Below, piece after piece: positions 4,675-9,098 of a stretch of DNA of 64,000 bases (its first letter is position 1; each line of letters starts with the position of its first letter). The stretch lies in the sequence record PP889466.1; one strand, 5' to 3'. The position numbers and the translations under genes are program-made. Source of the DNA: Klebsiella phage phi1_146015. Under the pieces are notes generated by a model. It did not search any database and was not told the DNA's origin. It saw only the letters and a program-made list of their open reading frames with translations.

Positions 4675-5148
4675 TTAGCCGTCATAACCACCACCGCAAC
4701 GAACATCACCTTCAATGAACAGTTCGCGGTTATCTCTCAGGAGATTGTATTTCTTTTCGAGTTCCGACCCGAATGCGTCCGCGTCGTCATACCAGTCATA
4801 GTTATAACTTCCGGTTTCATCGTCGTATTCCGGTTCGTCGCCGCGCTCATTGAAGTGAACGATTTTAACATCATCCAGATTCAGTTCTTTCAGCTTGTCC
4901 CAGATGCGGGTTATTTCGACGCTATTACATCCGAACGCTTCCAGTGTGATTGTGCCGTCATCATGTACTTGAGGAACACCCCAGCGCGGACGATGATCAA
5001 TTTCGGTAATCATATCCATCAGTGATTCGACGTTTGTTTCACCGTAAATCTTTGCAACTTCCTGTTCTTTACCAGGGCGGACAAGTCCGATCCCGATAAT
5101 GAAACTACTGCTTGAGCTATTGCTCACAAACCCAGAACGGATCTTCAT
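4675..5148 (-). CDS. hypothetical protein, MKIRSGFVSNSSSSSF-family paralogue A
   Basis: 157 aa. Its first 16 aa are identical to those of ORF 8586-9098, with about 90% nucleotide identity over the first ~50 nt. ATGA-coupled to the upstream 5145-5336. Confidence 0.6.
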   Translation of the reverse strand: MKIRSGFVSNSSSSSFIIGIGLVRPGKEQEVAKIYGETNVESLMDMITEIDHRPRWGVPQVHDDGTITLEAFGCNSVEITRIWDKLKELNLDDVKIVHFNERGDEPEYDDETGSYNYDWYDDADAFGSELEKKYNLLRDNRELFIEGDVRCGGGYDG

Positions 5149-5336
5149 CGCCTTGCCTCATATTTCGCGTTCTCCGCGATTTTCTCATGATACAGGTTGT
5201 ATGACAACACCAGCGGGATACTTGCCACGATAAGGCCAATGACAACCATTTGATATTCGCGCCTATCGAACGCCATGAATGAAATCGCAGCGCCCAGAAT
5301 AAACACACCCAATGCAATGATGAAGAATAATGTCAT
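5145..5336 (-). CDS. small membrane protein (2 predicted TM helices)
   Basis: LFFIIALGVFILGAAISFMAF and VVIGLIVASIPLVLSY hydrophobic segments. ATGA overlap with MKIRSGF-A. Confidence 0.5.
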   Translation of the reverse strand: MTLFFIIALGVFILGAAISFMAFDRREYQMVVIGLIVASIPLVLSYNLYHEKIAENAKYEARR

Positions 5337-5998
5337 TTTGGCAGGGTATCCATTTCACGAGATTTTGCTTTCAGGATGTCAATCACAGTAGTCATCGCCT
5401 GTTCTACATCACCATCATAGTGAATCAGGAATGTTTTGTGAAGTCCCATGATCAGACGATTGATGATATAAGCCATTTCTGACGGTAACAGTTTACCATT
5501 CTGGCGATCGTACTTTCCAAACAAGCGGTAGAGTTCTGCGCTGTTGCCTGGTTTCTCAATGCTGAAATTATGCATCCCAGACAGAATACCATCCAGATAC
5601 AGAACAGTTTTGTTATCACTGCGCAGGTGTCCGCCGACCTTGTAGTAGTTGCTGAATACATACGGCTTTTCGCGAATATCTTCGATATCGAAATCACCAT
5701 GATCTTCGATGTTGCCAACATGGGCGAAGAAATGATGATCTTCCAGTTCGAGAAGGATTGCACCCTTTTTGTATGGGAATCCGACTAAATCGATCTGCCA
5801 GCCATTTTCACCGACAAATACATCATCAACAACCACGAAATCCGGCAGCATAGGCGCGTATGCGTGATTCTTTTCGTCGTTTTCACGATAGGCTTGTGGT
5901 TCTGACAGGTACAGGATATCGCCTTTTACAACTTCACCCCAGAATACGTTACGTGACATATTATTTTCCTCAATATGCCCCCTTTCGGGGGCGGTCAT
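5333..5998 (-). CDS. hypothetical protein (221 aa)
   Basis: Long ORF, coupled to its neighbours, immediately downstream of the vWA gene. Confidence 0.55.
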   Translation of the reverse strand: MTAPERGHIEENNMSRNVFWGEVVKGDILYLSEPQAYRENDEKNHAYAPMLPDFVVVDDVFVGENGWQIDLVGFPYKKGAILLELEDHHFFAHVGNIEDHGDFDIEDIREKPYVFSNYYKVGGHLRSDNKTVLYLDGILSGMHNFSIEKPGNSAELYRLFGKYDRQNGKLLPSEMAYIINRLIMGLHKTFLIHYDGDVEQAMTTVIDILKAKSREMDTLPK

Positions 5999-8247: not shown

Positions 8248-8586
8248 TTAAATTTTCTCGTATTTGAATTTTTCTAAAATTTCGTTAACTTTATTGCTTA
8301 CTGCTTCGACTGTACGATCACACCCGAACTTACGCGCCAGGAGTTCAACGTATTCATCCATCGTAGTGAGTTTGGATTCAGCAACGTCAAACGCAAGCGC
8401 ATACATTACCGGATTCCATACCCGAACGATTTGGAGAGTATACTCGTTCAGTTCAAAACGTTCAAGATATTTTCGCAAAGAAAATACATCAAACGGCGCG
8501 GGACGATCCTGGCTAAAGGGGATCGACTCCCCTAATGCATAGCGAGGCATAACAACACAAACTTCTGTTTTCAGTTTATTATCCAT
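8248..8586 (-). CDS. hypothetical protein (112 aa)
   Basis: ORF abuts the vWA gene by 1 nt and overlaps the stop of MKIRSGF-B. Confidence 0.5.
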   Translation of the reverse strand: MDNKLKTEVCVVMPRYALGESIPFSQDRPAPFDVFSLRKYLERFELNEYTLQIVRVWNPVMYALAFDVAESKLTTMDEYVELLARKFGCDRTVEAVSNKVNEILEKFKYEKI

Positions 8587-9098
8587 CAGTGATGACTCTT
8601 TGATGTGTGTTCAAGGTTACGGAAGATGTTTCCATGTTCCAGTTGAGTTCCGATCGGACCGCATTCATCGGAGTACGTGAATTCATAGATAAACACGCCG
8701 TCCTGATTGCCGAACTTCGTGTTGTACTCTTCGTACAACCACATTTTGATCAGAGCGTCTTTCTCTTCTGTTTCAAGATCGTACCAGTCTCGCCCGTCAT
8801 ACGCAAGCGCAATTTGAGGATTTGAACGGTAACGGGTTTCTGCGCTTTCTTCGGTTTCCCAGTCATATCGTTTATCGTCGTAGAACGATTCAAAGCTATT
8901 ACCCAGATGACCGCCTAAGTCACGGTGAACGTGGTTGACCACTTCTTCGGATGATAGCGGGGGATCGTAGTAACCACAATCAGGGACGCAATCGCCCATC
9001 ATTTCGCGCAGGTTGTCGATATTAGTCGGATCTTTCGGGAACCGGACGATGAAACTACTTGATGAACTATTGCTCACAAAACCAGAACGGATTTTCAT
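8586..9098 (-). CDS. hypothetical protein, MKIRSGFVSNSSSSSF-family paralogue B
   Basis: 170 aa with the same 16-aa N-terminus as 4675-5148. ATGA-coupled to the upstream 9095-9328. Confidence 0.6.
   Translation of the reverse strand: MKIRSGFVSNSSSSSFIVRFPKDPTNIDNLREMMGDCVPDCGYYDPPLSSEEVVNHVHRDLGGHLGNSFESFYDDKRYDWETEESAETRYRSNPQIALAYDGRDWYDLETEEKDALIKMWLYEEYNTKFGNQDGVFIYEFTYSDECGPIGTQLEHGNIFRNLEHTSKSHH

Follow-up and report, generated by a model that had tools for sequence, protein, structure and literature searches.

Two genes that begin with the same peptide

The window analysed here, a 64,000-nucleotide (nt) stretch from Klebsiella phage phi1_146015 (PP889466.1), carries two genes, called A (4675–5148) and B (8586–9098), whose products begin with the same short peptide and then lose all detectable similarity. 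An earlier note, made by inspection of the same DNA, described them as paralogous genes with identical 16-residue N termini that bracket a gene for a vWA-domain protein. Both open reading frames (ORFs) exist, on the minus strand, and the stretch they have in common, MKIRSGFVSNSSSSSFI, is slightly longer than claimed, with 17 identical residues (17 of the first 18; Table 1). The portion of this tag that follows R4 begins SGFVSNSSSSSF.

At the DNA level, A and B match at 42 of the first 48 nt counted from the ATG (87.5%) and at 44 of the first 51, close to the estimate of about 90% over the first 50 or so nt. All six differences within the first 48 nt are synonymous, and none of the 16 codons carries a non-synonymous change. 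The divergence reported beyond the start was confirmed: neither BLASTP nor profile–profile comparison detects similarity past about residue 36, and hhalign of the A and B families aligns only residues 1–36 (probability 98.9%). Exactly two motif copies are present in the window by a DNA pattern (0 expected by chance), a peptide regular expression and a profile hidden Markov model, which finds them with E values of 3e-16 and 5e-16 and gives its next match at 0.09.

The fold comparison proposed for both proteins yielded AlphaFold2 models. That of A has an alpha+beta body and a pLDDT (predicted local distance difference test) score of 77, with residues 1–13 below 50. In both models the tag (residues 1–13 of A, 1–10 of B) has low confidence and is placed apart from the folded core, which would suit a peptide that is read by a partner, and strand beta1 starts at SSFI[IV]. 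The body of A has no significant match, and no adaptor or virion fold, in searches of PDB and BFVD. For A, B and the other proteins of the gene cluster, searches by sequence in Pfam, NCBIfam, PADLOC and PDB found only the vWA domain described below. Some deposited genomes label A 'head-tail adaptor' via phrog_132 (E value 2e-9, residues 77–148), a label to which the fold searches give no backing.

A large family defined by its N-terminal module

A and B are more than a local paralogue pair: both belong to a very large family of small acidic proteins, mostly viral, that are defined by an invariant N-terminal module and have bodies that are free to differ. The module spans about 36 residues and comprises the motif M-K-x-R-x-G-F-V-S-N-S-S-S-S-S-F, followed by strand beta1 and helix alpha1. 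When 1.84 billion representatives were searched exhaustively with a profile, the module appeared in 24,810 clusters (50% identity) at E ≤ 0.001. Most of these clusters are 100–170 amino acids (aa) long, and the match nearly always starts at residue 1.

Carriers of the module come mostly from large uncultured phages, in which tandem arrays of up to 13 genes are common. A back-translated motif scan of IMG/VR found at least 120 stretches, on contigs of 7–548 kb. Among unrelated metagenomic contigs, the motif starts 12 consecutive genes in one (L003; loci are designated L plus a number) and four in another (L001). The few seemingly internal motifs are cases in which two adjacent family genes are read as one ORF, each with its own Met-Lys start. 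Proteins P0150–P0157 and P0160 are of this type, with two consecutive members in one ORF that each keep an MKxR start; such fusions possibly arise from lost stop codons, sequencing errors or stop-codon recoding.

When copies are pooled (670 in 274 loci), M1, G6, N10, S11 and S12 are present in 670 of 670 and R4 in 669 of 670, although the search pattern permitted alternatives. K2, F7, V8, S15 and F16 are near-invariant. The changes tolerated are Thr at S9 and S13, and Thr, Ala or Cys at S14. Across hundreds of copies, each Ser position of the motif draws on all six Ser codons, so selection acts at the protein level. An RNA- or DNA-level element was considered and rejected because codon choice is free.

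This conservation stands out against the rest of the proteins. Relatives of A that are only 26–32% identical keep the first 20 or so residues unchanged, along with a C-terminal G[AG]G[YRF][DN]G. Relatives of B down to about 28% identity keep the N terminus and the pattern YSDExG...LEHGNIFR...SHH, and their middle region varies in sequence and length (154–266 aa). Thus, the motif is invariant among full-length homologues of A and B at 26–35% overall identity. Clustering of 241 proteins by body, after removal of the first 20 residues, gave 78 BLAST clusters, of which 54 are singletons. This amounts to at least 78 unrelated types of body, among them Cys-rich zinc-ribbon-like, helical and alpha+beta forms. 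A median isoelectric point (pI) of 4.5 marks the bodies as strongly acidic, a descriptive value because the background set includes spurious ORFs.

These data also bear on whether the identity of the two N termini is simply the functionless trace of an assembly artefact or of a recent duplication, gene conversion or leader swap. This explanation is already refuted by the codon, cluster and synonymous-site data: six synonymous and zero non-synonymous differences separate A and B over 16 codons, the same peptide recurs with free codon choice in about 24,800 clusters, and more than 170 phages, sequenced independently, have kept both genes. The recombination-mediated leader swap raised in the earlier note likewise fails on the diverged synonymous sites, the use of six Ser codons and the invariance of the motif in relatives 26–35% identical, and the same synonymous divergence and codon usage dispose of an assembly or duplication artefact.

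The family is absent from Pfam, NCBIfam and PADLOC, and PHROGs contain only subfamilies to which no function is assigned. A homology search with a 42-aa N-terminal profile returned short fragments only, with no fusions or names. Hence a well-known family with an N-terminal catalytic motif, an outcome that the earlier note allowed for, was not found; the family is large, and none of the libraries searched describes it. No paper containing the motif string was found in the open-access literature, which leaves room for a prior description elsewhere.

Several contigs show further features beside motif genes. The 40.7-kb phage-like contig L003, with its 12 motif genes, carries a gene resembling that of the major vault protein (Vault_3, MVP_shoulder) and a DUF2828/DUF7788 vWA protein (features at 13589–14510(+) and 3636–5168(+)). 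On L001, a 118–188-kb phage contig, ThiF- and ThiS-like genes (an E1-like enzyme and a ubiquitin-like protein; 15771–16567(+)) are found a few kb downstream from the array of motif genes, and many A-type bodies end in Gly. Contig L215 (NZ_JBHSCL010000010.1, 178,077 bp, labelled Flagellimonas marina) encodes A and B proteins almost identical to those of the window and probably reflects phage DNA that contaminates, or was co-assembled with, this bacterial assembly.

Genomic coupling to a radical SAM/SPASM enzyme

Among about 124 short viral loci, ORF clustering reveals that the commonest neighbour of motif genes from outside the family is a single family of radical S-adenosylmethionine (SAM)/SPASM enzymes (47 loci). 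A reciprocal test, independent of the motif, gave the same association. An enzyme profile retrieved 265 viral stretches, and the best 80 loci were examined over 10 kb on either side. Sixty-two of these 80 hold 1–13 motif genes within 10 kb, all on the enzyme strand, and eight of the 18 motif-free loci are T4-like relatives of the window phage itself. Of the 72 loci that are not T4-like, 52 have their nearest motif gene downstream (median distance 414 nt) and 10 have it upstream; the other 10 have none, and in three of these the downstream flank is incomplete. No other gene family is found in more than 10 of the 72. The coupling is therefore evident from both directions.

A similar association is observed elsewhere. 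A search of 596 Gbp of cellular genomes gave only 93 stretches with the motif, most of them on contigs of metagenome-assembled genomes, and the enzyme is also present on 49 of these 93 motif-bearing 8-kb pieces. Among cultured phages, 173 records have the enzyme and 176 have the region from A through the vWA gene to B, with host-genus profiles that are almost alike.

Motif and enzyme also vary together. Replacement of S9 by Thr is concerted among the unrelated paralogues within a genome: 11 loci have only Thr, versus 0.14 expected, and 0 of 2,000 shuffles reach 11, while 2 mixed loci are observed versus 23 expected. Sorted by enzyme clade, the replacement is found in 0 of 128 cases in the main clade, in 9 of 9 in each of two divergent clades and in 3 of 9 in a third.

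The window encodes a member of this enzyme family (Table 1), identified by hmmsearch at an E value of 1.6e-129 with a profile built from the radical SAM genes that neighbour motif genes in viral contigs. Its Pfam SPASM score is 24.5 bits, against a gathering score of 21.5, and in its relatives both Radical_SAM and SPASM exceed the Pfam cut-off. The typical family member has about 345 aa, a CxxxCxxC triad and a Cys-rich C-terminal half, and the enzymes have in common a conserved N-terminal extension of about 55 aa. The window enzyme has the cluster motif C70-x7-C78-x2-C81 and, by alignment, further invariant Cys residues at 262, 287, 305 and 357. Its C-x7-C-x2-C spacing is unusual, and relatives range from C-x3-C-x2-C (most) to about C-x13-C-x2-C. 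NCBIfam gives weak, below-cut-off matches, solely to peptide or protein maturases, and the PDB sequence search gives weak matches to SkfB and BtrN. Records of related phages annotate the enzyme as 'radical SAM protein'. No description of this family was found in open-access literature on phage systems for radical SAM chemistry or peptides that are synthesized by ribosomes and then modified post-translationally (RiPPs).

Some of the radical SAM genes are broken, as judged by inspection, by an intein-like insert exactly at the third Cys of CxxxCxxC (CPF|CSPAG…VHN|CYKGN). Examples are L012 3664–4638(−), L063 9798–10331(−) with 8588–9520(−), and L113 1340–1858(+) with 3024–3851(+). A role in DNA hypermodification, by analogy with gp53 of phage M6, was rejected: gp53 is spore-photoproduct-lyase-like and has no SPASM domain.

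The earlier note had suggested a targeting or processing signal, and one form of this idea is a signal for capsid targeting, secretion or proteolytic maturation. The T4 internal proteins IPI–III offer a precedent, with an identical N-terminal targeting peptide of about 10 aa on unrelated bodies, and the 'head-tail adaptor' label in some records of A points the same way. Capsid targeting sequences are lineage-specific, however, whereas this motif keeps the same sequence in phages whose capsids are unrelated, as well as in operons of bacteria. The body of A matches no adaptor or virion fold in PDB or BFVD. No L/I-x-E-type site is common to the two proteins, since A has none in its first 35 or so residues and B has LRE at 31–33, and the motif lacks the hydrophobicity of secretion signals. 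We regard a capsid, secretion or proteolytic signal as very improbable. A T4-type proteolytic or capsid role is unsupported because bacterial operons and thousands of unrelated phages carry the motif, because the radical SAM enzyme is its sole consistent partner and because no protease site is shared. What stands of the earlier suggestion is a portable signal under selection, of the 'processing' class.

The N-terminal module as a putative modification tag

One maturase gene accompanied by one to many genes that carry an invariant peptide is the layout of radical SAM-SPASM maturases and their precursors, and for this reason we read the tag as a site that would be bound, and probably modified. 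It is reasonably probable that the N-terminal module is the recognition tag, and most likely also the modification tag, of a dedicated radical SAM-SPASM maturase, which in the window would be the enzyme at 29471–30622(−). Other such maturases suggest, by analogy, a reaction in which the enzyme binds the extended N-terminal peptide and cleaves SAM to give a 5′-deoxyadenosyl radical, which would then remove a hydrogen from one of the residues of the invariant G-F-V-S-N-S-S segment. One common post-translational modification would in this way be installed on many bodies, with one enzyme serving many tagged substrates. Because G6, N10, S11, S12 and S15 are strictly invariant, the tag looks like a reaction site and would be more than a handle. 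The chemistry might be oxidation of a serine C-beta, as in the anaerobic sulfatase-maturating enzyme (anSME) and BtrN, or a C–C or C–O cross-link involving F7.

Several observations weigh against this proposal. The evidence for the putative enzyme–substrate relation is genomic: gene neighbourhood, co-distribution and co-variation. The co-variation of motif and enzyme could reflect shared ancestry rather than co-adaptation. Seven of the 72 enzyme loci that are not T4-like have full 10-kb flanks and no motif gene. The window enzyme lies about 20 kb from A and B, such that adjacency holds for the family and not for this phage. The co-distribution in cultured phages concerns one group of related phages, which are not phylogenetically independent, and is weak when taken alone. 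The motif census was largely gathered with a pattern that requires the motif; the unbiased parts of the data are the enzyme-anchored loci and the full-length homologue searches. Pfam detects no PqqD domain or RiPP recognition element (RRE) in the window enzyme or in one relative, although an RRE is not universal among radical SAM-SPASM maturases. Finally, known substrates of these maturases are usually short peptides, and folded ones of 100–250 aa are exceptional (sulfatases and QHNDH).

The same coupling and co-variation would also be expected if the module were a docking tag, with family members acting as adaptor or regulatory subunits that bring targets bound by their bodies to the radical SAM enzyme or that modulate its activity. 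The variable acidic bodies could be target-binding modules, and the tag is unstructured in the monomer models. We nevertheless judge docking to be unlikely, because one enzyme gene with up to 13 tagged genes is typical of an enzyme with its substrates and not of an enzyme with its subunits, the close relatives of the enzyme all modify the peptide that they bind, and the extreme invariance of the small polar residues N10, S11, S12 and S15 is more typical of a reaction site.

A bacterial version of the system

A cellular form of the system occurs in bacterial isolates belonging to three species, Acetatifactor muris, Lachnobacterium bovis and Veillonella parvula. In these bacteria a single motif-protein gene overlaps the radical SAM gene in a conserved operon (Table 1). 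The same operon has genes for a trypsin-like-protease/NACHT protein, for an MBL-fold protein, for a 142-aa protein and for an M1E1E6-like 'integron cassette' protein. It may be a defence system, and the trypsin–NACHT neighbour of the cassette hints at a link to immune sensing.

An adjoining NACHT protein would also suit a different function for the module, namely homotypic or heterotypic assembly through a beta-hairpin, amyloid-like or effector-associated-domain (EAD)-like element, with the radical SAM enzyme being only a co-regulated neighbour. A sequence rich in Gly, Asn and Ser that is followed by a hydrophobic strand resembles amyloid signalling motifs. A short N-terminal module on unrelated bodies likewise recalls the EAD- and Death-like adaptors of conflict systems (PMC7159879). 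Neither the NACHT protein nor the enzyme starts with the motif, however, and adaptor and amyloid motifs vary far more than this one does. Assembly would also leave unexplained why the radical SAM enzyme is the sole consistent partner and why motif variants match enzyme clades. We consider an assembly element improbable, somewhat more so than a docking tag.

Returning to the module as a modification tag, its biological role is a matter of speculation. Diversification of the bodies, tandem arrays, acidity and the bacterial protease–NACHT operon suggest a role in phage–host conflict. The complete scheme, which we put forward only tentatively and regard as possible but short of probable, is an unrecognised protein-maturation system of large phages, among them culturable T4-like phages of Escherichia coli, Klebsiella and Enterobacter. 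Its radical SAM/SPASM enzyme would add a new modification to a universal 16-residue tag and thereby arm tens of thousands of different, fast-diversifying small acidic conflict proteins, with the bacterial counterpart wired to a protease–NACHT sensor.

The gene block and the vWA neighbour

Genes A and B lie in a tightly packed block with the order p104, p77, B, p112, vWA, p221, p63, A, in which consecutive genes overlap or are separated by 0–2 nt. The ATGA coupling of A and B to small upstream ORFs (p63/A and p77/B), as described in the earlier note, was seen, and the same overlap joins p221/p63 and p104/p77. The remaining junctions are a TGATG overlap (B/p112), TAAATG (p112/vWA) and a 2-nt gap (vWA/p221). 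A promoter scan of the block found sites no more numerous than in shuffled controls. The window phage is T4-like, of the GAP161/PG7/RB43/KP15 type, and in deposited records the block genes are annotated as hypothetical nearly throughout.

Table 1. Positions of the main genes, the N-terminal modules, the neighbouring features and the bacterial operons
Feature	Position	Strand	Description
Gene A	4675..5148	−	157 aa; A-type body; C terminus GGGYDG; acidic, pI 4.4
N-terminal module of A	5095..5148	−	Codons 1–18, MKIRSGFVSNSSSSSFII; presumed recognition/modification tag
Gene B	8586..9098	−	170 aa; B-type body (phrog_7397); acidic, pI 4.7
N-terminal module of B	9045..9098	−	Codons 1–18, MKIRSGFVSNSSSSSFIV
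C-terminal pattern of B	within 8586..9098	−	YSDExG...LEHGNIFRN..H..SHH; last residues SKSHH
Radical SAM + SPASM/twitch enzyme	29471..30622	−	383 aa; presumed maturase of A and B
vWA/MIDAS protein	6001..8247	−	748 aa (phrog_2426); co-transcribed neighbour, placed outside the core system
63-aa protein (p63)	5145..5336	−	Two transmembrane segments; ATGA-coupled upstream of A; neighbour
221-aa protein (p221)	5333..5998	−	phrog_7309; neighbour
112-aa protein (p112)	8248..8586	−	phrog_7677; neighbour
77-aa protein (p77)	9095..9328	−	phrog_8236; ATGA-coupled upstream of B; neighbour
Terminator-like hairpin	9809..9826	−	Upstream of the block; end of the preceding unit
Terminator-like hairpin	4218..4245	−	Downstream of the block
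Bacterial operon, L206	1061–7997	−	
Bacterial operon, L262	28–5206	+	
Bacterial operon, L222, L236 and L269			

The 748-aa protein had been called a vWA protein with a metal-ion-dependent adhesion site (MIDAS), and this holds true. Three Pfam models (VWA_3, VWA_2 and VWA) exceed their gathering scores over residues 21–176, and the translation reads VFVCDVSGSMY, which contains the DxSxS MIDAS motif as D25-V-S-G-S29. Pfam assigns nothing to the C-terminal 550 or so aa, and the PDB sequence search of the protein found no match. Some deposited genomes label the protein 'minor tail protein'.

Homologues of the vWA protein are found in 504 phage records, versus about 173 for the radical SAM enzyme. 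Most of the phages that carry it have no enzyme, and they include ViI-like Ackermannviridae and phages of Rhizobium and Bacillus. Within 6 kb of the homologue in Det7 there is neither a motif gene nor any of the other genes of the window's cluster. Genes of the vWA type are near motif arrays in only a few percent of loci, examples being DUF2828/DUF7788 proteins in L003, L010, L063, L171 and L185/186 and, on the contig L036 of 307 kb, a homologue of the 748-aa protein. The spread over 504 records, Det7 and the few percent of loci led us to reject the vWA protein as an obligate third component, and the same data do not support the idea that A and B form a functional unit around it. Thus, the vWA gene is an independent neighbour of the motif/enzyme system. 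A loose thematic link is possible, given vWA-linked radical SAM-SPASM/FxSxx systems (PMC7159879).

We also considered whether the N-S-S-S-S stretch of the tag could be a pseudo-MIDAS resembling DxSxS. This reading was rejected, as a vWA fold would not fit into proteins of this size and as the motif is followed, in the models, by a beta strand and not by helix alpha1.

Other features were observed near the block or in other contigs. A 302-aa ORF just upstream of the block, at 10642–11550(−), resembles a C5 cytosine DNA methyltransferase in its translation (DLCAGVGG, FPCQ, ENV). Contig L005, which carries a B-type gene and the radical SAM enzyme, also encodes a 687-aa DUF8224 protein at 2253–4316(+). 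A close homologue (E value 9e-188) is present in Salmonella phage Det7 (L299 1939–3954(+)), two kb upstream of the vWA homologue. L005 may be an Ackermannviridae-like phage that carries the system.

Implications

If the enzyme–substrate reading holds, it would provide the first function-level hypothesis for about 25,000 clusters of phage 'hypothetical proteins' and would predict a new radical SAM protein modification. If true, the system would be a viral counterpart of RiPP biosynthesis at the scale of whole proteins, in which one enzyme serves a diversifying library of tagged substrates. The culturable Escherichia coli phages RB16, RB43 and Lw1, along with many Klebsiella and Enterobacter phages that are therapy candidates, have one enzyme and just two presumed substrates, and therefore the hypothesis is directly testable. 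The analysis also corrects the misleading automatic labels 'head-tail adaptor' and 'minor tail protein' in deposited genomes.

Comparison with known systems

The T4 capsid targeting sequence (IPI–III/Alt) is similar in that an identical short N-terminal peptide is found on unrelated small proteins encoded in a plastic region of a T4-type genome. The T4-type peptide ends in a prohead-protease site, L/I-x-E, and is restricted to related capsids. Here the sequence is different, there is no protease site and the spread extends far beyond T4-like capsids; the T4 peptide is tied to the prohead protease, whereas this motif is coupled to a radical SAM enzyme.

Glycyl radical proteins (PFL/GrcA) carry a C-terminal R-[IVT]-[CSA]-G-Y fingerprint (PROSITE) and are served by an activase that lacks SPASM. 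The motif here reads R-x-G-F, with Arg one position closer to Gly, is N-terminal and has a partner enzyme with SPASM. A glycyl-radical site at G6 was rejected because fingerprint, position and enzyme type do not fit.

Like the window enzyme, anSME/AtsB, which acts on Ser-type sulfatases, and BtrN are radical SAM enzymes with SPASM or twitch domains; the proposed parallel is that a protein, and not a peptide, is modified at a serine in a short conserved motif near its N terminus. The substrates proposed here are not sulfatases, however, and neither A nor B contains the sulfatase target motif (C/S)-x-(P/A)-x-R. The anSME model is also absent among the NCBIfam matches of the window enzyme.

FxSxx-COOH peptides, which Haft & Basu 2011 reportedly described with the radical SAM/SPASM enzyme FxsB, provide another parallel. 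Kaur et al. 2020 (PMC7159879) described vWA- and STAND-linked systems that have a radical SAM-SPASM enzyme and FxSxx-type peptides. As in our family, a fast-diverging small protein with a short conserved terminal F-x-S motif is paired with a radical SAM-SPASM partner in a conflict-type neighbourhood, and the occasional adjacent vWA genes and the NACHT protein of the bacterial version extend the likeness. In contrast, the FxSxx motif is at the extreme C terminus and is freed by a metallopeptidase, whereas here 16 N-terminal residues precede folded proteins of 100–250 aa, no peptidase is consistently linked, the distribution is mainly viral and the genes form multi-copy arrays. The FxsB model of NCBIfam does not match the window enzyme at E ≤ 0.1. 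F-x-S-x-x is absent from the extreme C termini of A and B, which end in GGGYDG and SKSHH, and their motif occupies residues 1–16.

Multi-precursor RiPP systems (prochlorosins/ProcM; SkfB, AlbA, PqqE and MftC) have the same arrangement of a maturase gene followed by several precursors that have an invariant recognition sequence and are different elsewhere, and their radical SAM-SPASM maturases belong to the same class as the window enzyme, a radical SAM protein with an auxiliary-cluster domain. What differs is the nature of the 'cores', which in this family are not peptides but entire folded domains of many unrelated types. For the motif/enzyme system, neither an RRE domain nor a leader protease nor an exporter was found. 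The conserved element, which is rich in potential reaction sites, may be the core rather than the leader.

Two features of a radical SAM-SPASM maturase–precursor pair are seen in this system. The enzyme has the radical SAM Cys triad and a C-terminal auxiliary Fe–S domain, and the putative precursor genes stand next to the enzyme gene across the family (62 of 80 loci, same strand, usually directly downstream). Judged by its sequences and gene layout, the motif/enzyme system resembles such a pair, and it differs by its N-terminal 16-residue tag, by tagged partners that are whole folded proteins, by a mainly viral spread and by multi-gene arrays.

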